64,000 bases of DNA, from IMG/VR virus record IMGVR_UViG_3300021256_000072, positions 1-64,000 of that record. The stretch is one strand, 5' to 3'. Source of the stretch: a virus. Taxonomy: Duplodnaviria; Caudoviricetes. The notes under the pieces are model-generated. The model was not told the origin of the DNA. It did no database searches and saw only the letters and a list, made by a program, of their open reading frames with translations. Both the position numbers and the translations under genes were made by a program. Position 1 is the first letter of the stretch; each line of letters begins with the position of its first letter. Shown here in pieces: positions 19,361 to 32,333 of this stretch.

Positions 19361-20281
19361 ATGACAGAAAAAGAAGCTGAAGATTTGTGTAAAATGATAA
19401 GAGTAGGAGTGGATTTAAGTAAGCCCAAGTACAATTATCATCCAAAAACAAGAGTGGAATTAAAAGATCTAATTGAGGAACTGATTGAAAAAAGAGGAAA
19501 TAAAGCAGATTTAAATGATGTTGATGTTTCTCAAATTACAGATATGAATCATTTATTTCTTAAATCTAAATTCAATGGAGATATCTCAAAATGGGATGTT
19601 AGTAATGTGAGGGATATGAGTTGGATGTTTTGGTGTTCTAAATTCAATGGGAATATTTCTAGTTGGAATGTTAGTAAGGTTGAGAAGATGGAACGTATGT
19701 TTTGTGGTTCCCAATTCAATGAAAATATTTCAAATTGGAATGTTAGTGAAGTGAAGGATATGAGTGAGATGTTTCTTGAATCTCAATTTAACGAAGATAT
19801 CTCAAATTGGGATGTTAGGAAGGTTGAGAATATGAGTTGGATGTTTTGTGGTTCTCAATTCAATGAAAATATCTCAAATTGGAACGTTAGTGGAGTAAAG
19901 AATATGGACGGAATGTTTTGTAGATCTAAGTTTAATGGAGATATTTCAAAATGGGACGTTAGTGGAGTGAAGGAGATGGAAAGGATGTTTCTGAGATCTC
20001 AATTCAACGGAGATATCTCAAATTGGAATGTTAGTAATGTTGAGAACATGGAAGAGATGTTTGCTTATTCTCAATTTAACGGTGATATTTCTAGTTGGGA
20101 TGTTAGTGGAGTTGAGAATATGAAATTTATGTTTTTCGAGTCTCAATTCAATAGTGATATCTCTAAATGGGACGTTAGGAAGGTGAAGAGTATGGAAAGG
20201 ATGTTTAAGAAGTCTCAATTCAATGGAGATATTTCTAAATGGCCTAAGAAACCAAAAGGATATAAAAAATACTCGGATTAA
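19361..20281 (+). CDS. DUF285/BspA-type repeat protein (10 units)
   Basis: Leader, N-cap, repeats; C-terminus reads into the hairpin. Confidence 0.9.
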   Translation: MTEKEAEDLCKMIRVGVDLSKPKYNYHPKTRVELKDLIEELIEKRGNKADLNDVDVSQITDMNHLFLKSKFNGDISKWDVSNVRDMSWMFWCSKFNGNISSWNVSKVEKMERMFCGSQFNENISNWNVSEVKDMSEMFLESQFNEDISNWDVRKVENMSWMFCGSQFNENISNWNVSGVKNMDGMFCRSKFNGDISKWDVSGVKEMERMFLRSQFNGDISNWNVSNVENMEEMFAYSQFNGDISSWDVSGVENMKFMFFESQFNSDISKWDVRKVKSMERMFKKSQFNGDISKWPKKPKGYKKYSD

Positions 20282-20342
20282 TTTCCGGGTTTTTATTTTC
20301 TCCTCAAAATCTTATTTATGAAACTTTTAATAGTTTATTATT

Positions 20343-21317
20343 ATGACAGAAAAAGAAGCAGAGGATTTATGTAGAATGATAAGAGTGGGAGTAGACTTGG
20401 GTAAACCTAAATATAATTATCATCCAAAGACAAGAGAAAAATTAAAATATTTAGTCGAAAAACTAATTGAAAAAAGGGGAAATGAAGCGGATTTGAATGA
20501 TATTGATGTTTCCCAAATTACGGACATGAACGGTTTGTTCGCTTGGTCTAAATTCAACGGAAATATTTCAAAGTGGAACGTTAGTAATGTGAAGAATATG
20601 GGAGGAATGTTTGGTCATTCTAAATTCAACGGAAACATTTCAAATTGGAATGTTAGTAAGGTTGAGAGTATGAGTTATATGTTTATTTCTTCTGAATTTA
20701 ATGGAGACATTTCAAGTTGGGATGTTAGTGGGGTGGAGAGGATGAAAAATATGTTTGCTTGGTCTGAATTTAATGGTGATATTTCAAATTGGGATGTTAG
20801 GAGAGTTGAGAGTATGGAGCGCACGTTTTATCGTTCCAAAAAATTCAATGGGGATATTTCAAAATGGGATGTTAGTAGAGTGAAGAATATGAGTAATATG
20901 TTTTATGGTTCTCAGTTTAATGGAGATATCTCAAAATGGGATGTTAGTGGAGTTGTAAATATGAGTGGAATGTTTGCTTGGTCTGAATTTAATGGAGACA
21001 TTTCAAGCTGGAATGTTAGTGGAGTGAGAGGGATGGGTTGTATGTTTGCTAACTCTCAATTTAACGGCGATATTTCAAAGTGGGATGTTGGAAGAGTTGA
21101 AAATATGAGTTATATGTTTTGTGAGTCTAAATTTAATGGAGATATCTCAAAATGGGACGTTAGTGGGGTGAAAAATATGTCTTGGATGTTTTATGATTCT
21201 CAATTTGATGGAGATATCTCAAAATGGGATGTTAGTGGAGTTGAGGATATGGGAGGAATGTTTCAGGGATCTCGATTCAACAGAGATATTTCAAAATGGG
21301 CTAAGAAACCAGAATAA
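20343..21317 (+). CDS. DUF285/BspA-type repeat protein (11 units)
   Basis: Leader, N-cap, repeats. Confidence 0.9.
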   Translation: MTEKEAEDLCRMIRVGVDLGKPKYNYHPKTREKLKYLVEKLIEKRGNEADLNDIDVSQITDMNGLFAWSKFNGNISKWNVSNVKNMGGMFGHSKFNGNISNWNVSKVESMSYMFISSEFNGDISSWDVSGVERMKNMFAWSEFNGDISNWDVRRVESMERTFYRSKKFNGDISKWDVSRVKNMSNMFYGSQFNGDISKWDVSGVVNMSGMFAWSEFNGDISSWNVSGVRGMGCMFANSQFNGDISKWDVGRVENMSYMFCESKFNGDISKWDVSGVKNMSWMFYDSQFDGDISKWDVSGVEDMGGMFQGSRFNRDISKWAKKPE

Positions 21318-21398
21318 AAAAGAAAGACCTAGATAAATTTATCTAGGTTTTTATTTTCTCCTCAAAATCTTATTTATGAAACCTTTAATAATTTTATT

Positions 21399-22295
21399 AT
21401 GACAGAAAAAGAAGCTGAAGATTTGTGTAGAATGATAAGAATAGGAGTAGATTTAAGTAAGCCTGAATACACTTATCATCCAAAAACAAGAAGGGAATTA
21501 AAATATTTAGTCGAAAAACTAATTGAAAAAAGAGGAGATGAAGCAGATTTAAATGATGTTGATGTATCCCAAATTACGGATATGAGTGAATTGTTTGCTT
21601 ATTCTCGATTCAATGGGAATATTTCAAAGTGGGACGTTAGTAAAGTTGAAGATATGGGAGGAATGTTTGGAAACTCTAAATTTAATGGTGATATCTCAAG
21701 TTGGGACGTTAGTAAAGTTGAAGATATGGCGTGTATGTTTGTTGATACTAAATTCAATGGGGACATTTCTAATTGGAACGTTAGTAAGGTTGAAAGAATG
21801 AGTTATATGTTTGCTTGGTCTCAATTTAATGGAGATATTTCGAAATGGAATGTTAGTAAGGTTGAGGATATGAATAATATGTTCTATAATTCTAAATTCA
21901 ATGGTGATATCTCAAAATGGGATGTTAGTAGGGTGTGGGATATGCAGAATATGTTTTATGGTTCTCAATTTAATGGGGATATCTCAGAATGGAATGTGAG
22001 TAGGGTGAAGGAGATGATTGGTATGTTTGCTCATTCTCAATTCAATGGAGATATTTCAAATTGGGATGTTAGTGAAGTTGTGAATATGGGTAGTATGTTT
22101 CAGGATTCTAAATTTAATGGTGATATTTCTAATTGGGATGTTAGTAGGGTTGTGAATATGAGTTATATGTTTGATGAGTCTGAATTTAATGGAGATATCT
22201 CAAAATGGAATGTTAGTAATGTTAGGTATATGAGTTGTATGTTTATTAATTCTGAATTTAAAGGCGATATTTCTAAATGGGTTAAGAAACCATAA
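21399..22295 (+). CDS. DUF285/BspA-type repeat protein (10 units)
   Basis: Leader, N-cap, repeats. Confidence 0.9.
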   Translation: MTEKEAEDLCRMIRIGVDLSKPEYTYHPKTRRELKYLVEKLIEKRGDEADLNDVDVSQITDMSELFAYSRFNGNISKWDVSKVEDMGGMFGNSKFNGDISSWDVSKVEDMACMFVDTKFNGDISNWNVSKVERMSYMFAWSQFNGDISKWNVSKVEDMNNMFYNSKFNGDISKWDVSRVWDMQNMFYGSQFNGDISEWNVSRVKEMIGMFAHSQFNGDISNWDVSEVVNMGSMFQDSKFNGDISNWDVSRVVNMSYMFDESEFNGDISKWNVSNVRYMSCMFINSEFKGDISKWVKKP

Positions 22296-22391
22296 TAAAA
22301 AAAACAATAAAAGACCTAGATTAGTTTAATTTTAATCTAGGTTTTATTTTCTCCTCAAAATCTTATTCATGAAACTTTTAATAATTTTATT

Positions 22392-23078
22392 ATGACAGAA
22401 AAAGATGCTGAAGAGTTGTGTAAAATGGTAAGAATAGGTGTAGATTTAGGTAAACCTAAATATAATCATCATCCAAAAACAAAAGAAAAGTTAAAAGATC
22501 TCATTGAGGAACTAATTAAAGAGAGGGGAAATGAGGCAGATTTGAATGATGTTGACGTTTCCCAAATTACGGATATGAGTTATTTATTTTATAAATCTAA
22601 CTTTAATGGGAATATTTCTAATTGGAATGTGAGTAAGGTGAAGAATATGAGTTGGATGTTTCGGGAATCCCGATTTAATGGAGATATTTCAAAATGGGAT
22701 GTGAGTAAGGTCAAGAGTATGGGCTGGATGTTTCTAGGATCTCAATTTAATGGTGATATTTCTAAGTGGAATGTTAGTAGTGTAAAGGATATGAGGTGGA
22801 TGTTTCGGGAATCCCAATTTAACGGCGATATCTCAAAATGGGACGTTAGTGGAGTGAAATGGATGTACTATATGTTTTCTAGATCTCAATTTAACAGTGA
22901 TATCTCAAAATGGGATGTTAGTGGAGTGAAGAATATGATAAAGATGTTTGCTAATTCTCAATTCAATGGAGATATTTCAAATTGGGATGTTAGTGGGGTT
23001 GAGGAGATGGGTATGTGGTGTATGTTTGAAGATTCTCAATTCAATGGGAATATTTCTAAATGGGTTAAGAAACCGTAA
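22392..23078 (+). CDS. DUF285/BspA-type repeat protein (7 units)
   Basis: Leader, N-cap, repeats. Confidence 0.9.
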   Translation: MTEKDAEELCKMVRIGVDLGKPKYNHHPKTKEKLKDLIEELIKERGNEADLNDVDVSQITDMSYLFYKSNFNGNISNWNVSKVKNMSWMFRESRFNGDISKWDVSKVKSMGWMFLGSQFNGDISKWNVSSVKDMRWMFRESQFNGDISKWDVSGVKWMYYMFSRSQFNSDISKWDVSGVKNMIKMFANSQFNGDISNWDVSGVEEMGMWCMFEDSQFNGNISKWVKKP

Positions 23079-23174
23079 TAAAAAAAAATAATAAAAGACC
23101 TAGATTAGTTAATTTTAGTCCGGGTTTTCTTTTCTCCTCAAAATCTTATTTATGAAACCTTTAATAATTTTATT

Positions 23175-23945
23175 ATGACAGAAAAAGAGGTAGAGGATTT
23201 ATGTAGAATGGTAAGATTGGGAGTAGATTTAAGTAGACCTAAGTACAATTATCATCCAAAAACAAAGGAGGAGTTAAAAAATCTAGTCGAAAAGTTAATT
23301 GAAGAAAGAGGAAGAAAAGCAAACTTAAATGATATAGACGTTTCTCAAATTGAAGACATGAGTTTGATGTTTGGTTGGTCTAACTTTAATGGAGATATTT
23401 CTAAATGGAACGTTAGTAGAGTAAAGAGAATGGACAGGATGTTTACTTATTCTCAATTTAATGGAGATATTTCAAATTGGGATGTTAGTGGAGTGAAGAG
23501 TATGGAAGGAATGTTTGAAGGTTCTAGATTTAATGGAGATATCTCTAATTGGAATGTTAGTGGAGTTGAGGACATGAGTTATGCGTTCTATGGCTCTTCT
23601 CGATTTAATAAGGATATTTCAAAGTGGAATGTTAGTAGAGTTATGGATATGAGAGGAATGTTCGCTTATTCTCAATTTAATGAAGATATTTCTAGTTGGG
23701 ATGTTAGTGGAGTGAAGGATATGAGGCATATGTTTGAAGGTTCTCAATTCAATGGAGATATTTCAAATTGGGATGTTAGTAGGGTTGAGTGGATGGAATG
23801 GATGTTTCGATGTTCTAAATTTAACAGTGATATTTCTAGATGGAATGTTAGTAGTGTGAAGAATATGAACTGGATGTTTCTGGGATCTCAATTCAATGGG
23901 GATATCTCAAAATGGGCTAAGAAACCAACAGACTATTACTATTAA
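23175..23945 (+). CDS. DUF285/BspA-type repeat protein (8 units)
   Basis: Leader, N-cap, repeats. Confidence 0.9.
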   Translation: MTEKEVEDLCRMVRLGVDLSRPKYNYHPKTKEELKNLVEKLIEERGRKANLNDIDVSQIEDMSLMFGWSNFNGDISKWNVSRVKRMDRMFTYSQFNGDISNWDVSGVKSMEGMFEGSRFNGDISNWNVSGVEDMSYAFYGSSRFNKDISKWNVSRVMDMRGMFAYSQFNEDISSWDVSGVKDMRHMFEGSQFNGDISNWDVSRVEWMEWMFRCSKFNSDISRWNVSSVKNMNWMFLGSQFNGDISKWAKKPTDYYY

Positions 23946-23948
23946 AAA

Positions 23949-23983
23949 GTGATATTTCAAAATGGGCTAAGAAACCAGAATAA
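23949..23983 (+). pseudogene. Orphan 3' end of a DUF285 gene (DISKWAKKPE*)
   Basis: gatatttcaaaatgggctaagaaaccagaataa matches the end of 20343..21317. Confidence 0.8.
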
Positions 23984-24031
23984 AAAAAATAAACCTAGAT
24001 TAATTTATCTAATCCGGGTTTATTTTTTTTT
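23984..24031. terminator. Bidirectional hairpin closing the array
   Basis: A-run, aataaacc...ggtttatt, T-run. Confidence 0.65.
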
Positions 24032-24082
24032 ACGAAGCCCCACCGATTTAAGCATTGTAAAGAGGCTTGGCGGGATCTGTTA
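24031..24082 (-). ncRNA. Candidate small RNA resembling the abiF RNA motif
   Basis: - strand ACAGATCCCGCCAAGCCTCTTTACAATGCTTAAATCGGTGGGGCTTCGTA; CCCGCC/GGTGGG and AAGC/GCTT stems; GC-rich island with its own promoter. Family assignment is from recall and not searched. Confidence 0.55.
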
Positions 24083-24085
24083 ATG

Positions 24086-24093
24086 CAAAGATA
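24086..24093 (-). promoter_or_regulatory. Bacteroidota primary-sigma -7 box TATCTTTG
   Basis: - strand ...tatggaatatataagaaattttttgTATCTTTGcattaac; exact TAnnTTTG with an imperfect -33 element. Confidence 0.7.
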
Positions 24094-24127
24094 CAAAAAA
24101 TTTCTTATATATTCCATAAAATTAGAA

Positions 24128-24167
24128 AAAATATAGAGTAAGGTTTTATTTTCCCTACTCTATATTT
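24128..24167 (-). terminator. Hairpin ending the structural operon
   Basis: aaatatagagta...tactctatattt just past the 24177 stop, with a T run on the - strand. Confidence 0.55.
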
Positions 24168-24176
24168 AATAATTTA

Positions 24177-27100
24177 TTACGTTGGAACTGGGTAGAATGT
24201 AACATTATCATAACAAGCTCTGTACGTGTTATAATCTGCTTCATCATAACCCAGTAAACTTTCCGTATTGATACCATTTCCTAACGGATCACCAGCTGTA
24301 GCAATCAAGTATTGGCTATTACTAGTTAATGGTGGGGCTATTTTAGCAGCGTAAGAAAGACCACCATAATCAGAATATCCAATGCGCATGAAATAACTAC
24401 TAGAATTGCTAAGAAGAGTTGATTTATTCCAAGAAATTAATGTACCCTCTTTTATCACATTACCATATATAAACAAATTTATTGCATTATTGTATATATT
24501 GTCAAGTTTTAAATTAGGATAAGACATTAAATCTAATCCCCATTCCATTCCAGTAAATTCAGTTTCTCCTGTATCTACTTGATTGCCCTGACCATCATCT
24601 TCATAAATAGGAGATAATATCGGAGTTCCCATTACAGAATACCGAATTCCAGAGTCTGCAGTGTAATACTTAGGGAAACCTGCACTAGCATCTACTAACC
24701 CAATAGGAACTTCAGCACCTCCAGCAGAGTTTGAACCACCTGGCAATGCATTAGCTAAGGTTATTGTAGAAGTAGGGATAGATTTTCTTGTAGAATCATT
24801 CAAGAATACTACATAATAAACCTTCTCATAATCAGATACTGGAGGAACTATCAACTTGAAATTAAAGGCGTTAGCTAATGAAGTAGCATCCGTAAAGTTA
24901 ACTGGAACATAGTAATAGTATTTATGGTAAACTTGAACAGGATCACCATTACCGTCTACAGTATTCTCTATGTAAGTATCATACAATTTTGGGGTAATGT
25001 ATAAGCCATAGAAGGTGTACGTAATACTAGCACTTTTACAGTTTTTCAATAAATTATCAGGTAGAACTCCAGTGAATGTTACTATTGATCCATTGTAATT
25101 TGCAAAACAAGCATAAATAGAACATCCTGAAGTGCTTGACCCATAAAATATATCAGGGGCTACAAAACATCCATTAGATCTAACATTACTATAATTAGAC
25201 AAATTCTTTACTTCTTGAGCGGTTGTTCCAAGAGGATATGTAGTTATTCTCTGTGTAAAGTGACTTTGTATATTTTCAGTATCTGTTATCTCCGTAGGCT
25301 GTTGAATCGTGTGCTTAGTTGAAGACGTTTCTGATTCATAATATTCAGTTCCTTCATCTATTTCAGCCCCACCAGCTCCGTATGTAACTAGTCTAACTCT
25401 TTTGAAGCTTCCTTTATTATATTCTCCTTGAGGATCAAAACATTGTGGAGTTTCTAGGATAATATTTCTAAAACATCCTTCCAATGATTCAACCGTTCTA
25501 TCATACTCGTAAGTAATCAATTTAACCGGTTTTCTTCCTGATCCACCTGTGCTTACAAATACCGTTGATACCACTTCTCTTCTCTTTCTAAGAAAATCGA
25601 AAGGTATAGGATTCTTCCATCGAGTAGAATAGAATGTTTCGTACAAACTTGTAAGATTAGGTAAATACTTAAAGAAATCGTGGGTTATAGTTAAATACTG
25701 ATTCTGAGATTGTAAATCTGTTCTAAAATAACAATTAGAGAACAAGTAATCAATCGTAGTAATAGAAGTATTTTGTTCACCCGTATAAGTTCCCTCATCT
25801 ACTAAAGAAAATTCAGAAGGAAGAGTACCAGTAATAATGCAATTGTAAAACAGTCTATACAAACCTGTCAAATTAACGGCATACTTTAACACATTAGCCC
25901 ACAATGCTTGAAAATCAGCATACGTTATAGTCTTCGGAAATCCTATACTAGTATCTACTGTTTGGCTAAATAGCATCTTCAGCTTTTCTAATTTTCTTCT
26001 TATTACATTCTGATTAGTTTCACCAATACCCCAATTCAAGAAAGTAGCGATATCAACTCTTCCTTTGCCGTTATTGGTATTTGGATTTAATGAAATATTT
26101 CTAAATGATTTTACAATGGATTTAACCTCTACATTATAGAAAAGATTCTCCATTCCTTTTACTCCGGAATAAGTAACCCTTTCGAATACTTCATCCATAT
26201 CCAACCCATAATCAATTCCGGTACCAGGCTGAATTGAAACATAATCTGTAGTAAACCAATTAGTACAATTTATAATCTGTTCTGGATAAATCTCAATTCC
26301 TCTGAGTATTCTCATTACTCTAGGAGGATTTGATCCACCTCCATAAAATAAGTCATGCATAGAAACTTCAGATAAAGGAGAATAATCCTCAACTTCTGTA
26401 ACGGTGTCTGTAATCCCTGCGTCGTATTCTATAAAGTAAAGACAAGTATCGTCTGAGTTTCTAGTTCTAAATCGGATCTGTGTAATCTTACTAGAAATAA
26501 ACTCAAGAACATCAATGGTAGTATACAACACGTGATACCAAGTATTGCTAAACTGTCTCCACATTCCACGGGTTTCTTCACTAGTTCTAGGATTATTAGC
26601 CGTTCTTTCTCCAACCATAGCAGTATCCGAGAATGAAAGCCAGGTAGATTGAGATGCAAATCCTTGGAACATATATTTATTCATGAAGTCTATTGGATTG
26701 TCATATAATATACCATTACAAATATTTATTTTAGAAAATCCAGACAATGATAATGAGCTTTCCCCATTTAAATACTCTTCCCAACCTTGGGCTAGACTAT
26801 ATGTTATGGATTGATTTCTAAACAAGTTACTTGCAGTAGTGACATTTCCAGCACTTATGGTAGGATTATTACTACTCTTTATACACTCATCTAAGAAATA
26901 CTTAGCTGCAAGATAATCAATAGAACCCTTGATATTAGTATTAGTAATATAGAAGGTATTATTTAGATTAGTACAAGTATTCTTAACAAAAACCCTTGCG
27001 AATACAGGATCTTCTCCAGGAACATCTTCGCACTGTCTATAGGTCCATTCACTACAATTAGTAAAGGTATCATTAGAGATTATATAATAATTTCCGCTAC

Positions 27101-30100
27101 CTTCAATATACTTTAATCTAGAACATCCATAAAAAGCTCTATAAGGAAAATCTACATTCTTATTTGGCAATTTAAGCACTTCTAGTCTAGTATTCATCAA
27201 ATAAACACTAGTCAATGCAGTTTGATTAGAAAGATCTACTACACCAGCTACTGGACCAGATTTAAGAGTAGTTGCAGTTGCATTACTTGGACTTGGAGCC
27301 TCAATTTTAAGAACTTTTAATACGTCAGAGTTAGGGTCATTTATACTAAAGGTTTCTAATTTCGGACAATTATACACATATACGTTTTCAAATCCGGTAA
27401 CACTCAACGAAGTCATTGTAGTATTATTTCGAATTGTCAAAGTATTATGTGGATATTTTTTAGTATCATTTACTACAGTTACGCTATTACATGCCCAGTT
27501 TGCAGAAGTATTATTACTAGACCAAGTTGTAGGCAATATTATATTATTTTGCCAAGATGGAATATTCAACGAAGATAAGGTTCCTGAAATAGACACCTTA
27601 GATAGTGTTCCAACATTCGTAATATCTATCTTACTACCAGCTTTCATATTAGTTGCAGCTAGTGTAGTAAAGGATTCATTAGATACTCTCAATGCTATCT
27701 TGGTTCCAGTAATATTAATGGTTTTCAAGTTAGGGAAATTATCTGTAGTTCCAGTAGACTCAAATGCCAAATCTCCTGAATACCCATCATTATTAGTCAA
27801 TGATATGGTCTTCAAGCTTGGAGTATTAATTGTCCAAAGGCTACAAATACCAGAGGTTCCTATCAATGAAGTAAAGTAATCTGATTTAACCGTAAGCGTT
27901 CCTTTTGTTGTAATGAATGGATTTATTGAACTAAGATAAGTCCAAAGAGAAGATCCACCTAACAATGAGAACTGGTTACTATCGGTTTTTATTGATAGAT
28001 TACATACTCTTCCGTCATAAGGCAAAATATATCTAGCACTCTGATTGGTTCCTTTCAAAATCAATGGAGCATAAGGCTTAGCTTGAACTGAAACAGCAGC
28101 TGACAAATTTATATACTGATTACCAGCTGAAGTATCAGAGAAGATATCTTTTAATACATAGATATCTTTATTATTACTATCAATAAATTGCGTATCTGGG
28201 ATAGGAGAAGATATATCCTCTAAAGCATTCAAAGTATCTCCAAGTCTATTCAAATTGAAGTAAGCATCCAATATATGGAAACGTCCCTGTAACCAATCTG
28301 CGGTATAGGCTTGTTTTCTTCCATAAAACTTAGGGAAATTCGTAGTATCAAAAGCAGTTGAATTTTCTGGGAATACAAAATATTTATACTTATAATTATA
28401 ATTGAATGCACTTAATGGAACATCCTTTAAGTGATCATTATAGTAAGTATTCATAAAGTATTCTGCATTAGACAAACAACCCCTCTGCTTTTCACTTTGA
28501 GTATTCCAAGCATCATTTCTAGAAGAGTTTCTCCATAATGCCCATAGATTCGAAGGGTGCATTATCAAGTCTACCTCTTTCAAAATTGGATATGCATACT
28601 TAGCAATTGCAAATAGATAAGATGAAGGAACATCAAAGAATGCTGAATTAGGATCGCCATCTTTATTTTCTTCTACTTGTCCATTTGTGGTATCACTTTC
28701 CTCTTTAGGTGAATAATCCCTCCATACATTAGCCTCATTCAAGAATCCTTTATCATTAACTGAGCTTTCCCAATAATCAGAGAACGCAAAGTATGAAATT
28801 CTAGAACCGGAATTGGAAACACCTAAACACGTATCCATATCATAGAAAGCTGGATAGAAAGATGTTCCAGAATTCCAAGACTTGATATTTAAATTCTTTT
28901 GTACAGAGTCAACCAAACCGAAGGCCATACAAATAGTATAATACTCACAAACTGCTGTATAATCAAGACCAACTTCTACATTAGATTCTCCAGTTTCATC
29001 ATGTAGTAAAAGCTCTTTAAGGTCTCTTTCAGTAGCTGGATCTTGGAGCATTGTGAAATTATAAATATTGGTAGTGCCTACTTTAGATCTAGTGGCTTGA
29101 TACAAATAGTTTGGTACTTGATTCTTAGGAACTCCATTTTCGTCTGTTGCTGAATATTTGTCATTATATCCGTAGTAATCTGATGGACTTGTAGAGAAAG
29201 TTTTTCCTATAGCCTCAAACGCATAACCGCCTGCTCTAGCTACTCTTCTTACAAAAGCTGCTATCTTACTCTTAGCATTAGCATATTTACCTGAAGAACC
29301 TGATACACCGTCAACGAAGTCTCCGAACATAACAGTCTCATCACCAGTACCTATATCATACAGAATCGTTTCGCTGTATTGTGAAAAGTCAAAGAATTTA
29401 TTATTACCTTGAATTTCTGCTGCTGCTACTGAGTTCAAAATACCATTATCTTCAGGAGCTATGTCATAAATATGGAATCCTGAAGTTAAACCTAAAGACT
29501 CCAATTTAGTAAGGTCTTTATAACCAAGATTGAAGTATGAATTTCTACCTAAATTGAAATTATAAACGCCAAAGAAGTAATAATTTTCTATATTAACATC
29601 CGCTGCATTCTTATCCTGCTTATATCTGGTATGTATAAACAACAGAATTGGGAAACCCGTAAGACAGTTTTTGATAAAGTTACCATACACAGCCTTATTT
29701 TGTCTAGCTAATGCAAATGGAGTAGTAATATCATTAATAAACTTACCCATTGCATTATTATTAGTATGGCTTGAGTCTACAACGTCTGCTTTAAGCGTGA
29801 ATGACTCCTCTGGCAAAAACGTTTCTGGATTATTAGGATCGAAATTAGGAGAGAATAGACACTTGCTTTCATCATTAGATTCTGGCGCAATCAATTCGAA
29901 ATTCTTACACCGATAACTTCTTGTAGATGAACCTTGTAGCGTTAATTCAAAGTTAGCTGGAGCACTAGAACCTTGCTTAGTAATAGTAGTAAGTTCGGTT
30001 CCTTTACCATCAGCCCATTGAACAGTTACGCTAACATTTTCAATTTCATCCATTTCAGTATATTCAGCGCTAACCCATCCTCTAAAGTTATCTACATTAT

Positions 30101-32333
30101 ATCCATTGTAGGTATCATTTATTCTACCAGCAGTATCAGTAAATGACAATACCATCACTGGAATTTTCGACAACTTAGCAATATTGTCAATAGCGGTAGA
30201 ATTGGTTTTTACAAAATTATCGCTATCACAAGTAAATCCGGAGAAAGCATCGAACAAGGCCTTATCACTATCATCAACTGCACCTCCTAATAATTTTTCA
30301 TAATAAGTATAGTAATACCCGATGAAATCATTATCAGTTAACCAAGTTGTTGAAGAACTTTGATCTGAGTGTTGGAAGCAGTGATATTCTACTTCATTGA
30401 CATAGTAGTTTCCTGGATAGAATACAACATCAGTATACTCTTGATGGACGGTTACGAAATTCTTCATAGCAGCCTCAAGTACTCCATCCAAATACACATA
30501 AACGCCTTTCCAGTAGTTATTACCCTCTCTTCTTTCAAACTTTTTATAAATACTAAGCTGGTGGTAATTGGTTGAAACAGAGTCATCGAGATTATCAGTC
30601 ATTGGAAGGAATATTTCACAAGACTCTCCCTCGATCCCTATAATCTTTCCATCCTCATTTATAGTTATATCATCAGCAGTACTTATTACAATCTTACTTT
30701 GATATACGAAGATATTCCACTTATTAGTTCCTCCTGCTGCTGAAAATGAGAAGATAGGGTATTCTGTTTCATTAATGCTAGAATATTGGATACCTACTGT
30801 TAGTAACTGGTCAAGGTCATTATACGTTGATGCTACTTGTTGATCAAAGGTACAAACAATATTCTCAGTATTATTAATGTTACTAGAAATAGCTGAGGTA
30901 TATGGTATACTTACATTGTTACTCTCAGAATATCTTCTATAATAACTAGAGAGAACTGGAGTAATATCTTTTGGTATCCAATCAAAATTAGATGTAGATT
31001 CCTTAACGAAGAAGTAATATCCAGTAGTATAACTTGTTCCTTCTGCAGAAATGGTGAAAGATATATAATGTTCTCCACTTGATGTAATAGGAACACTAGG
31101 AGCCTGTTGAGTTTGGTCAGAAAGCTGTGTAATACTTTGTTCTACATCTTCCAAATCTTCTGGTGAGGTTCCAAGTTGTATTAAGAGGTTATATTTTCTG
31201 GTGGTATCTAAACTTCCGTAATATGGAGTAAGTACAAAGACTGCTGAACCTAAACTAAATCTTCCGTTTACTGGATAGTTTATTACATTATCTCCATTTA
31301 ATTGTCTATGTTCATAAAGGGTTCCTGCTGATGTGGTTAATTTCAAGAACATACCGGCTGGAATCAAATTATCCTTTAATGACATTTCAGCAATATCTTC
31401 TGGATGTGGATTTCCCTCTAATGTAATATTAACGTTCAGAATAAACTGAGTATATTTAGCATTTTCATTATCATCTAAAAAATCCAAAATATCAGTCTCA
31501 GTACACAAGTCCAAGTAGATGGTATTAGTGGATTTTTCCTGAATAAGTTTATCTGTTGGAACTTCTCCTGCTGGAACAATAGTCGTAGTAACACCTTGAG
31601 GAGTAGTTTTTGTTATACCATTAAGTTGAGATACTTTCCAATAGTTACCCTCCCAATCCGAATATGAATACTCAGCACTTAAAAGCCCTACCGAAACTGT
31701 ATAAGTAAGAGCAGCCTGAATACCGCTAGTTTTAACATCGTTCATGAAGATAGTATTATTAGAAGGAGTAAAATCCATCTTAGAATCTGCATAAACGTAT
31801 TTTAAAGTAAAGGTATGAGAAACTACAATATATGGAATAACGAAAGTACTAACCTCTTGTGTATCTTGGTTAACTACTGTCAAAGATATATTACCATTAA
31901 GATCCAAGTACATAGCTTTTTGCCACAAGAATCCATCTCCAGCAGTAATAACATTAGACGAGGCTTGGGTTCCTTTTGAATTTACATAAGAAGAGGAAAC
32001 TCTAAAAGAACTTTGACCGCCACCATAAATTTGAATACAAAAGGTGTAATTTCCAACTCCACTAAGATTGACTGGAACATTATTAGTTAAAACGTCTCCG
32101 CTAGGTCCACCTTTGGTTACTACAATTTTCCAAGAAGTAGAAGAAGAACCGGATCCTCCTCCAGACCCGGTCCCAATTCCTCCATTCTTATAAATCCACT
32201 TAATATTACTTTCGAGTGTATTGATTTTCTCTCCATAATTAGCTAAAACGGATGAAAGGTCTCTACCAGAGTCATTATTATTTGTAATGGTTATGTCTTG
32301 GTCAGTTACTATATTTTTTCCGTTTTTCTTCAT
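24177..32333 (-). CDS. Giant (2718 aa) probable virion protein with CotH-kinase-like domain and LRR-like C-terminal region
   Basis: LQGSST, LKADVVDSSHTNN, GFPILLF, GVYNFNLGR, GLVDSVQKNL and FYDMDT motifs; later FPNLKTINIT / AFYGCSRLKYI LRR-like repeats. Confidence 0.7.
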   Translation of the reverse strand: MKKNGKNIVTDQDITITNNNDSGRDLSSVLANYGEKINTLESNIKWIYKNGGIGTGSGGGSGSSSTSWKIVVTKGGPSGDVLTNNVPVNLSGVGNYTFCIQIYGGGQSSFRVSSSYVNSKGTQASSNVITAGDGFLWQKAMYLDLNGNISLTVVNQDTQEVSTFVIPYIVVSHTFTLKYVYADSKMDFTPSNNTIFMNDVKTSGIQAALTYTVSVGLLSAEYSYSDWEGNYWKVSQLNGITKTTPQGVTTTIVPAGEVPTDKLIQEKSTNTIYLDLCTETDILDFLDDNENAKYTQFILNVNITLEGNPHPEDIAEMSLKDNLIPAGMFLKLTTSAGTLYEHRQLNGDNVINYPVNGRFSLGSAVFVLTPYYGSLDTTRKYNLLIQLGTSPEDLEDVEQSITQLSDQTQQAPSVPITSSGEHYISFTISAEGTSYTTGYYFFVKESTSNFDWIPKDITPVLSSYYRRYSESNNVSIPYTSAISSNINNTENIVCTFDQQVASTYNDLDQLLTVGIQYSSINETEYPIFSFSAAGGTNKWNIFVYQSKIVISTADDITINEDGKIIGIEGESCEIFLPMTDNLDDSVSTNYHQLSIYKKFERREGNNYWKGVYVYLDGVLEAAMKNFVTVHQEYTDVVFYPGNYYVNEVEYHCFQHSDQSSSTTWLTDNDFIGYYYTYYEKLLGGAVDDSDKALFDAFSGFTCDSDNFVKTNSTAIDNIAKLSKIPVMVLSFTDTAGRINDTYNGYNVDNFRGWVSAEYTEMDEIENVSVTVQWADGKGTELTTITKQGSSAPANFELTLQGSSTRSYRCKNFELIAPESNDESKCLFSPNFDPNNPETFLPEESFTLKADVVDSSHTNNNAMGKFINDITTPFALARQNKAVYGNFIKNCLTGFPILLFIHTRYKQDKNAADVNIENYYFFGVYNFNLGRNSYFNLGYKDLTKLESLGLTSGFHIYDIAPEDNGILNSVAAAEIQGNNKFFDFSQYSETILYDIGTGDETVMFGDFVDGVSGSSGKYANAKSKIAAFVRRVARAGGYAFEAIGKTFSTSPSDYYGYNDKYSATDENGVPKNQVPNYLYQATRSKVGTTNIYNFTMLQDPATERDLKELLLHDETGESNVEVGLDYTAVCEYYTICMAFGLVDSVQKNLNIKSWNSGTSFYPAFYDMDTCLGVSNSGSRISYFAFSDYWESSVNDKGFLNEANVWRDYSPKEESDTTNGQVEENKDGDPNSAFFDVPSSYLFAIAKYAYPILKEVDLIMHPSNLWALWRNSSRNDAWNTQSEKQRGCLSNAEYFMNTYYNDHLKDVPLSAFNYNYKYKYFVFPENSTAFDTTNFPKFYGRKQAYTADWLQGRFHILDAYFNLNRLGDTLNALEDISSPIPDTQFIDSNNKDIYVLKDIFSDTSAGNQYINLSAAVSVQAKPYAPLILKGTNQSARYILPYDGRVCNLSIKTDSNQFSLLGGSSLWTYLSSINPFITTKGTLTVKSDYFTSLIGTSGICSLWTINTPSLKTISLTNNDGYSGDLAFESTGTTDNFPNLKTINITGTKIALRVSNESFTTLAATNMKAGSKIDITNVGTLSKVSISGTLSSLNIPSWQNNIILPTTWSSNNTSANWACNSVTVVNDTKKYPHNTLTIRNNTTMTSLSVTGFENVYVYNCPKLETFSINDPNSDVLKVLKIEAPSPSNATATTLKSGPVAGVVDLSNQTALTSVYLMNTRLEVLKLPNKNVDFPYRAFYGCSRLKYIEGSGNYYIISNDTFTNCSEWTYRQCEDVPGEDPVFARVFVKNTCTNLNNTFYITNTNIKGSIDYLAAKYFLDECIKSSNNPTISAGNVTTASNLFRNQSITYSLAQGWEEYLNGESSLSLSGFSKINICNGILYDNPIDFMNKYMFQGFASQSTWLSFSDTAMVGERTANNPRTSEETRGMWRQFSNTWYHVLYTTIDVLEFISSKITQIRFRTRNSDDTCLYFIEYDAGITDTVTEVEDYSPLSEVSMHDLFYGGGSNPPRVMRILRGIEIYPEQIINCTNWFTTDYVSIQPGTGIDYGLDMDEVFERVTYSGVKGMENLFYNVEVKSIVKSFRNISLNPNTNNGKGRVDIATFLNWGIGETNQNVIRRKLEKLKMLFSQTVDTSIGFPKTITYADFQALWANVLKYAVNLTGLYRLFYNCIITGTLPSEFSLVDEGTYTGEQNTSITTIDYLFSNCYFRTDLQSQNQYLTITHDFFKYLPNLTSLYETFYSTRWKNPIPFDFLRKRREVVSTVFVSTGGSGRKPVKLITYEYDRTVESLEGCFRNIILETPQCFDPQGEYNKGSFKRVRLVTYGAGGAEIDEGTEYYESETSSTKHTIQQPTEITDTENIQSHFTQRITTYPLGTTAQEVKNLSNYSNVRSNGCFVAPDIFYGSSTSGCSIYACFANYNGSIVTFTGVLPDNLLKNCKSASITYTFYGLYITPKLYDTYIENTVDGNGDPVQVYHKYYYYVPVNFTDATSLANAFNFKLIVPPVSDYEKVYYVVFLNDSTRKSIPTSTITLANALPGGSNSAGGAEVPIGLVDASAGFPKYYTADSGIRYSVMGTPILSPIYEDDGQGNQVDTGETEFTGMEWGLDLMSYPNLKLDNIYNNAINLFIYGNVIKEGTLISWNKSTLLSNSSSYFMRIGYSDYGGLSYAAKIAPPLTSNSQYLIATAGDPLGNGINTESLLGYDEADYNTYRACYDNVTFYPVPT

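Follow-up and report, generated by a model that had tools for sequence, protein, structure and literature searches.

We found a full-length abiF RNA, a hairpin of the AbiFr antitoxin type, on the minus strand of the genome of a large, rumen-type phage, behind a Bacteroidota-type promoter box and with no AbiF toxin gene detected in the 106-kb contig that carries it. Judged by its sequence, the element belongs genuinely to the abiF RNA family, yet it is not part of a toxin-antitoxin (TA) system as found. The explanation that we favour, with a confidence somewhat above even, is that of a stand-alone RNA gene which was captured from a host AbiF-AbiFr type III TA locus and which would be used, by analogy with other phage RNAs, as a decoy that disarms AbiF.

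Identity and Fold of the RNA

The original prediction described an orphan abiF-like RNA that follows an exact -7 box, folds on one strand only and runs into a bidirectional hairpin, and all the elements of that description are present where it had placed them. An all-family Rfam cmscan of the window (the whole 64-kb stretch of DNA that was analysed) matched positions 24074-24038 on the minus strand to the abiF RNA family, RF03085, at 52.2 bits against a gathering score of 37 (E 8.4e-7), with model positions 1-37 of 37 aligned. The family proposed in the original prediction is thus borne out by a covariance-model match above threshold, and it is the sole Rfam family to reach threshold within the window. 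The same match was the single one in a one-family scan of the whole 106,463-bp viral record (E 3.2e-10), and it was recovered in a permissive local scan of 20000-28000 (E 1e-7), in which no second abiF copy was seen. Its score falls within the range of toxin-linked copies (42-63 bits). The RNA and the features around it are listed below.

24038..24074, minus strand: abiF RNA motif (AbiFr-type antitoxin hairpin), full length; RF03085, 52.2 bits
24086..24093, minus strand: Bacteroidota-type -7 promoter box TATCTTTG (consensus TAnnTTTG), recognised from the sequence
23982..24030, both strands: bidirectional intrinsic terminator (A9, 21-nt arms, T8), from inverted repeat and fold
24123..24167, minus strand: intrinsic terminator with 15-nt arms and then a T-run, belonging to the 2718-aa gene upstream
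24177..32333, minus strand: gene of a 2718-aa protein, the upstream context, with no informative family match
23175..23945, plus strand: converging DUF285 repeat-protein gene, last of an array at about 1-23945 and not an AbiF; Pfam PF03382, E 9e-108

The outer stem of the phage RNA, CCCGCC/GGUGGG, has 6 bp of which one is a G.U pair, so that it can pair on the minus strand only. The inner stem, (A)AGC/GCU(U), closes the loop CUCUUUACAAU, and the bulge is UAAAUC. This fold, which agrees with the one predicted (CCCGCC/GGUGGG plus AAGC/GCUU around CUCUUUACAAU, minus strand only), is both the MFE and the centroid structure in a 121-nt context (z = -3.8), and none of 200 shuffles was equally stable. 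The conserved bases of the family loop (CCUCU..A.AAUGCU) and bulge (.AAAUC) are all intact, and every position fixed in our search pattern and seen across 140 loci is also present in the phage RNA.

Promoter, Terminators and Layout

The anticipated exact -7 box, TATCTTTG at 24093-24086 (-), stands exactly 11 nt 5' of the motif, and the RNA is predicted to start at about 24080-24078. The TAnnTTTG box is rare in this phage, where only 5 of 92 ORFs have it within 150 nt upstream and where it shows no genome-wide enrichment; this rarity of host-type promoters counts against the decoy reading. A consensus scan for sigma-70 promoters and terminators was set aside, since Bacteroidota promoters lie outside its model and its G+C rule misses AT-rich terminators.

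On the upstream side, the terminator of the 2718-aa gene is an inverted repeat with arms at 24129-24143 and 24153-24167 (93% complementary). It is kept in all strain contigs and is predicted to insulate the RNA unit against read-through from that gene. Downstream, the abiF stem is followed by the 7 nt GCUUCGU and then by A9 and a separate hairpin terminator; a U-tract directly 3' of the hairpin is absent, whereas canonical loci have UCGUUUU there. The bidirectional hairpin at 23982-24030, with its 21-nt arms flanked by an A-run and a T-run as had been described, is common to the RNA unit (-) and to the last DUF285 gene (+), and its stem occurs as CCCGG, CCTGG or CCTAG in different strains. No ORF follows the RNA on the minus strand, again as claimed from the sequence: of the frames of at least 40 aa on that side, one (40 aa) overlaps the RNA itself and the others run antisense within the converging DUF285 gene. 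The whole should therefore be read, as a prediction, as an insulated promoter-RNA-terminator cassette whose transcript would measure about 95-105 nt, with its 3' end predicted at about 23985.

The unit sits where two transcription units converge, and the DUF285 genes beside it are mosaic and recombining. This position would also suit some other RNA or DNA role, such as that of an insulator of transcription, of a hairpin that stabilises RNA, or of a site for recombination or integration that looks like a small-RNA gene of the host. Phage integration into small-RNA genes is frequent, which lends the last variant some appeal. We nevertheless hold such a role to be very improbable: two dedicated terminators already flank the unit, an attachment site is normally the 3' part of a gene and not a promoter at functional spacing, and the bases conserved in the unit are characteristic of the AbiF-binding RNA family. 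No tyrosine integrase was found in the contig, and the integration-site variant was rejected on this ground.

Strains, Relatives and Candidate Host

At 90% identity, the 2718-aa neighbour clusters into a group of 26 sequences. At least nine contigs, assembled independently from different samples and with different assemblers, have the same promoter, RNA and spacer to the letter; they show small differences at the end of the upstream gene and in the stem of the terminator, and they differ in the adjoining DUF285 genes. An assembly chimera of host and phage reads, for which the only argument is that the element is nearly identical to host sequences, was rejected and has in our view a practically negligible probability, as the same junctions recur on these contigs from different samples and pipelines and the element is internal to the 106-kb contig. 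The strains are nearly identical throughout, so conservation among them is weak evidence of selection and is not statistically meaningful. This near-identity, together with the incompleteness of the genome, counts against the decoy reading.

Relatives of the phage came from a protein database; the C-terminus of the 2718-aa protein retrieved none from IMG/VR. Where the orthologous gene region of a relative shows 74%, 48% or about 32% identity, there is no abiF RNA within 6 kb and the corresponding spot is taken by other genes. The absence of the unit from these sister lineages points to a lineage-specific acquisition. Searches at the DNA level gave no match to 23000-26000 among INPHARED phages, and a metagenome scan for the motif joined to the phage-specific 3' flank found no match either. 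Among nine to ten neighbouring large proteins, there were no informative PHROGs or Pfam matches.

Positions 1-23945 (+) hold a long array of DUF285 (PF03382) repeat-protein paralogues, and the genes that adjoin the RNA unit differ between near-identical strains (L150 versus L152-L157). At 23951-23983 (+), behind the true stop of the 256-aa gene at 23945 and ahead of the terminator, lies a second copy, 33 nt long, of the 3' end of a DUF285 gene (DISKWAKKPE, then stop); strains L152-L157 have this segment as the real gene end. The last gene of the array has thus been remodelled by recombination, with the RNA unit left untouched.

As to the host, Shine-Dalgarno motifs are not enriched in the phage (9.8% of ORFs against a background of 10.2%). 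Such a lack of enrichment is typical for Bacteroidota and their phages, and it fits a Bacteroidota host, which is itself a presumed one. In a distant relative (L146:17402-18103), a sigma-70 family protein (Sigma70_r2/r4) is encoded beside a tRNA and a terminase-like gene, a hint that phages of this group may redirect transcription.

Bacterial abiF Loci

For comparison, species-representative bacterial genomes were scanned with an exact pattern of the conserved core, which gave at least 120 loci. Nearly all the bacterial loci among the matches listed are from Bacteroidales (Prevotella, Bacteroides, Alistipes, Muribaculaceae and others). An AbiF HMM was built from three downstream ORFs that Pfam confirmed as Abi_2 (E 1e-51 to 1e-57). 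The prediction that the motif precedes Abi-family genes in Bacteroidota was correct: among the matches listed, an AbiF ORF lies directly downstream on the same strand in 83 of 114 assessable bacterial instances, Prevotella and other Bacteroidales copies being directly upstream of Abi_2, with nine further instances too close to a contig end to be counted in the 114. In all 83 linked cases listed, the toxin is within 250 nt of the RNA and on the same strand, and none of them has a trans-encoded toxin arrangement. The canonical order is the TAnnTTTG box, an 11-nt spacer, the hairpin, UCGUUUU and the AbiF start some 20-25 nt further on. Of the 123 bacterial loci listed, 55 have the box at a distance of exactly 11 nt, and 108 have TAnnTTT[G/A] no more than 24 nt from the motif. 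The phage unit has this same 11-nt spacing and is absent from its sister lineages, which supports the view, also taken in the original prediction, that the promoter was captured along with the RNA.

The remaining 31 of 114 instances (about 27%, among the matches listed) have no AbiF despite at least 900 nt of room. These motifs (31 loci within L022-L141, e.g., L122, L141, L026, L125, L028 and L047) have a canonical promoter and U-tract, which are followed by unrelated genes or by nothing; they may be toxin-deleted remnants or chromosomal 'immunity' copies. At one locus at least, L099, a 50-aa fragment is all that is left of a decayed AbiF beside the RNA. This fragment and the share of toxin-less copies indicate that loss of the toxin with retention of the RNA is common, and with 31 of 114 bacterial copies toxin-less, the absence of a toxin alone does not prove a counter-defence role.

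Abi_2 was found in 58 of 151 (38%) and the abiF RNA in 44 of 151 species genomes of the family to which the Prevotella genome of L091 belongs, so the putative target is very common in the candidate host family. Eight of the 44 RNA-positive genomes in this sample have no Abi_2 match at all. The Segatella copri MSK.21.95 genome (G003, the genome of L084) has four above-threshold abiF RNA matches on four contigs, which suggests that a single host may carry several AbiF systems.

Search for a Toxin in the Phage Genome

The absence of an AbiF ORF, expected for an orphan RNA, was observed across the contig. A Pfam search of the 106,463-bp record gave no match to Abi_2 (PF07751), and the lineage-specific HMM, run with --max on six-frame ORFs of at least 50 aa over the 106 kb, found nothing better than E 0.14. 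A hidden divergent AbiF within the contig was rejected on the strength of this unfiltered search. These searches covered a 106-kb contig of a genome of at least 312 kb: CheckV estimates the record to be 29% complete, and a 312-kb strain contig exists (ENA ERZ12302812, NODE_13).

That incompleteness leaves room for an AbiF-like toxin elsewhere in the phage genome, of which the RNA would be the cognate antitoxin in a split TA system for superinfection exclusion or addiction, like the AbiF of the C. difficile prophage; phage-encoded AbiF systems are indeed known (PMC12373285). Such an arrangement seems improbable to us, given that the toxin is never more than 250 nt from its RNA, on the same strand, in the 83 linked bacterial cases listed and that no Abi_2/AbiF-like ORF appeared in 106 kb even at E up to 10 without filters.

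Nearness to Cognate Antitoxin RNAs

The 37 nt of the phage motif are identical at 35 of 37 positions to a dozen bacterial copies among the matches listed, and the closest of those listed come from ruminant-gut Prevotellaceae and Bacteroidaceae MAGs. Copies with 35/37 identity stand upstream of intact AbiF ORFs in L091 (Prevotella sp. RUG063), L063, L092 and L117; the RNA of L057 is as close, and its AbiF ORF is split. One difference is a C-to-U change that turns a G-C pair into G.U, and the other is U37G, which is seen too in the toxin-linked loci L037 and L132. Both differences are structure-neutral on the predicted fold. The antitoxin nucleotides that contact AbiF include C32 and U38. Outside the hairpin, every bacterial locus listed departs from the 11-nt spacer of the phage at 3 or more positions out of 11, and the sequence 3' of the stem is unrelated to the bacterial loci beyond CUUCGU. 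A 3' end unlike that of cognate RNAs is a point against the decoy reading, in which binding to AbiF is a prediction.

PbAbiF (PDB 8VZ6) matches the AbiF proteins of L091 and L063 over the whole of their length (E 2.4e-124 and 1.7e-122). PbAbiF is blocked by its upstream ncRNA (PMC12737573, PMC13064643), and RCd22 neutralises the AbiF of C. difficile in trans (PMC12373285). The statement of the original prediction that AbiF toxins are inhibited by their cognate RNA is accordingly found in the literature, where AbiF/AbiFr and RCd22 are described as type III TA pairs whose RNA acts in trans (PMC12373285, PMC12737573, PMC13064643).

Toxin-Less abiF RNAs in Other Viral Contigs

The core pattern also matched 20 IMG/VR contigs. 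An AbiF adjoins the motif in 5 of these, directly downstream in 4, the exception being L002; 11 have room but no AbiF, and 4 could not be assessed. In the exceptional contig, the motif (L002:8546-8582) has its own promoter and lies 81 nt past the end of the AbiF ORF on the same strand; it may be a second copy that brackets the toxin. Toxin-less copies are more frequent in the viral than in the bacterial set (11/16 versus 31/114, the bacterial count being among the matches listed; Fisher p = 0.003), a comparison to be read with the biased, pattern-based sampling in mind and with some of the viral contigs being prophages. The viral toxin-less copies keep the outer stem through compensatory changes, e.g., CCAGCC/GGCTGG and CCCTCC/GGAGGG.

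Many of these copies lie in tRNA arrays (L005:856-892, L014:10348-10384, L003:3180-3211, L009:3624-3655, L016:6242-6273, L012:673-709 and L015:4120-4151). About 30 tRNAs surround the motif in L005; one 193-kb contig has about 30 tRNAs around the motif. The copies in arrays have no promoter and would presumably be released by tRNA processing. A truncated 3' half of the outer stem, with the match confined to model positions 3-34, is seen in L003, L009, L016, L006, L020 and L015, where it is succeeded by a conserved extension. In a viral contig of 9 kb (L017:5300-5618), an abiF motif of 56 bits precedes a permuted tmRNA gene (RF04321, 107 bits) by 6 nt.

The strongest competitor to the decoy reading is that recombination, illegitimate or homologous, brought a fragment of a host AbiF locus, promoter and RNA, into the phage as a neutral hitch-hiker or relic, recent and harmless and with no part in infection. 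About 27% of the bacterial copies listed are toxin-less, and a decayed AbiF is seen at L099; the element is restricted to one species-level lineage, and the strains are too alike to demonstrate purifying selection. All of this is what a passive fragment would look like, and we still think this explanation unlikely. The 37 nt have only two structure-neutral changes, whereas the spacer is changed at 3 or more of 11 positions against all the sampled hosts listed; the promoter and terminators are intact and neatly insulate the unit; and toxin-less copies with compensatory stem changes, many of them in tRNA arrays, are found independently in several unrelated phage lineages.

Proposed Role of the Phage RNA

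In the decoy reading, which we prefer by a modest degree of belief, the donor of the unit would be a rumen Prevotella-type AbiF locus of which the promoter and the antitoxin hairpin were kept, with no toxin gene beside them. The host RNA polymerase would read the TAnnTTTG promoter and produce an RNA of about 95-105 nt in which a short leader precedes the 37-nt abiF hairpin and the terminator hairpin comes last. Where the host possesses AbiF, infection would otherwise cause the host's labile antitoxin RNA to be depleted or displaced, which would free the HEPN RNase. The RNA made by the phage would then bind AbiF in trans, the active site would stay blocked and abortive infection would fail. We infer transcription, its timing, binding, neutralisation and the identity of the host. 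A decoy function is the most likely one by analogy with phiTE pseudo-ToxI and the RNA anti-CRISPRs. Within the reach of sequence analysis, the interpretation given in the original prediction is supported, with suppression of host AbiF early in infection as the putative purpose.

The toxin-less abiF RNA phenomenon appears to be widespread. We see an even chance that many unrelated phage lineages have repeatedly captured an AbiF antitoxin RNA as a trans-acting RNA anti-defence, the present phage being the freshest stage with host promoter, hairpin and spacing intact. AbiF/Abi_2 is among the commonest abortive-infection toxins in gut and rumen Bacteroidales, and a 37-nt RNA that switches AbiF off in trans would, if the reading is right, explain how large Bacteroidales phages cope with this defence. 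An RF03085 match without Abi_2 would then be a simple marker for counter-defence loci and for guesses at the host, and the toxin-less abiF RNAs would make up a widespread natural 'anti-AbiF' class, a counterpart of the RNA anti-CRISPRs for the proposed ancestor of Cas13. The present instance is especially clean, in that donor-type locus, promoter and boundaries can each be recognised.

Comparison with Known Systems

In the literature searched, we found no description of a phage with a true copy of an AbiF antitoxin RNA. The phage RNA is of the same family as the abiF RNA/AbiFr of the Prevotellaceae AbiF (8VZ6) and RCd22, with the two-stem hairpin, the loop and bulge, and the Bacteroidota promoter geometry. 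The promoter at about 11 nt is shared with the AbiF-AbiFr TA loci; the HEPN toxin gene (PF07751) and the U-tract are not. Unlike AbiFr and RCd22, the phage RNA has no AbiF gene after it, and in place of the U-tract there is a spacer, followed by a separate terminator that works in both directions. The phage RNA also differs from AbiFr in its setting, a lytic-looking large phage, between the gene of a giant protein and a DUF285 array.

The tRNA-array copies (L005, L014, L003, L009, L016, L012 and L015) and the copy beside the tmRNA (L017) belong to the same family and invite the same decoy reading. Those in the arrays lack a promoter of their own, whereas the present copy keeps a host promoter and would be its own transcription unit. 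A hairpin in the cos region of phage sk1 inhibits AbiF though it is unlike the ncRNA of that toxin (PMC13064643).

The evasion of ToxIN by phage phiTE by means of pseudo-ToxI, to which the original prediction appealed, is documented (PMC3594212). Pseudo-ToxI is likewise a phage RNA that resembles the antitoxin of a host type III TA system and comes without the toxin, and the action proposed is direct inhibition of the toxin in trans. The phage abiF RNA shares these traits, being phage-encoded and like a host antitoxin (35/37) with no toxin found in 106 kb. Pseudo-ToxI targets ToxN and consists of tandem pseudoknot repeats that had to be expanded before they worked, whereas the abiF RNA would target the HEPN toxin AbiF as a single hairpin with a host-type promoter. 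The RNA anti-CRISPRs (Racrs), solitary repeat units in viruses (PMC10651486), are likewise small phage RNAs that mimic the protein-binding handle of a defence effector. AbiF/AbiFr has been proposed as the ancestor of Cas13/crRNA (PMC12737573), which makes this parallel a close one. Racrs mimic CRISPR repeats and subvert Cas complexes, whereas the phage abiF RNA mimics a TA antitoxin and would keep the toxin inhibited.
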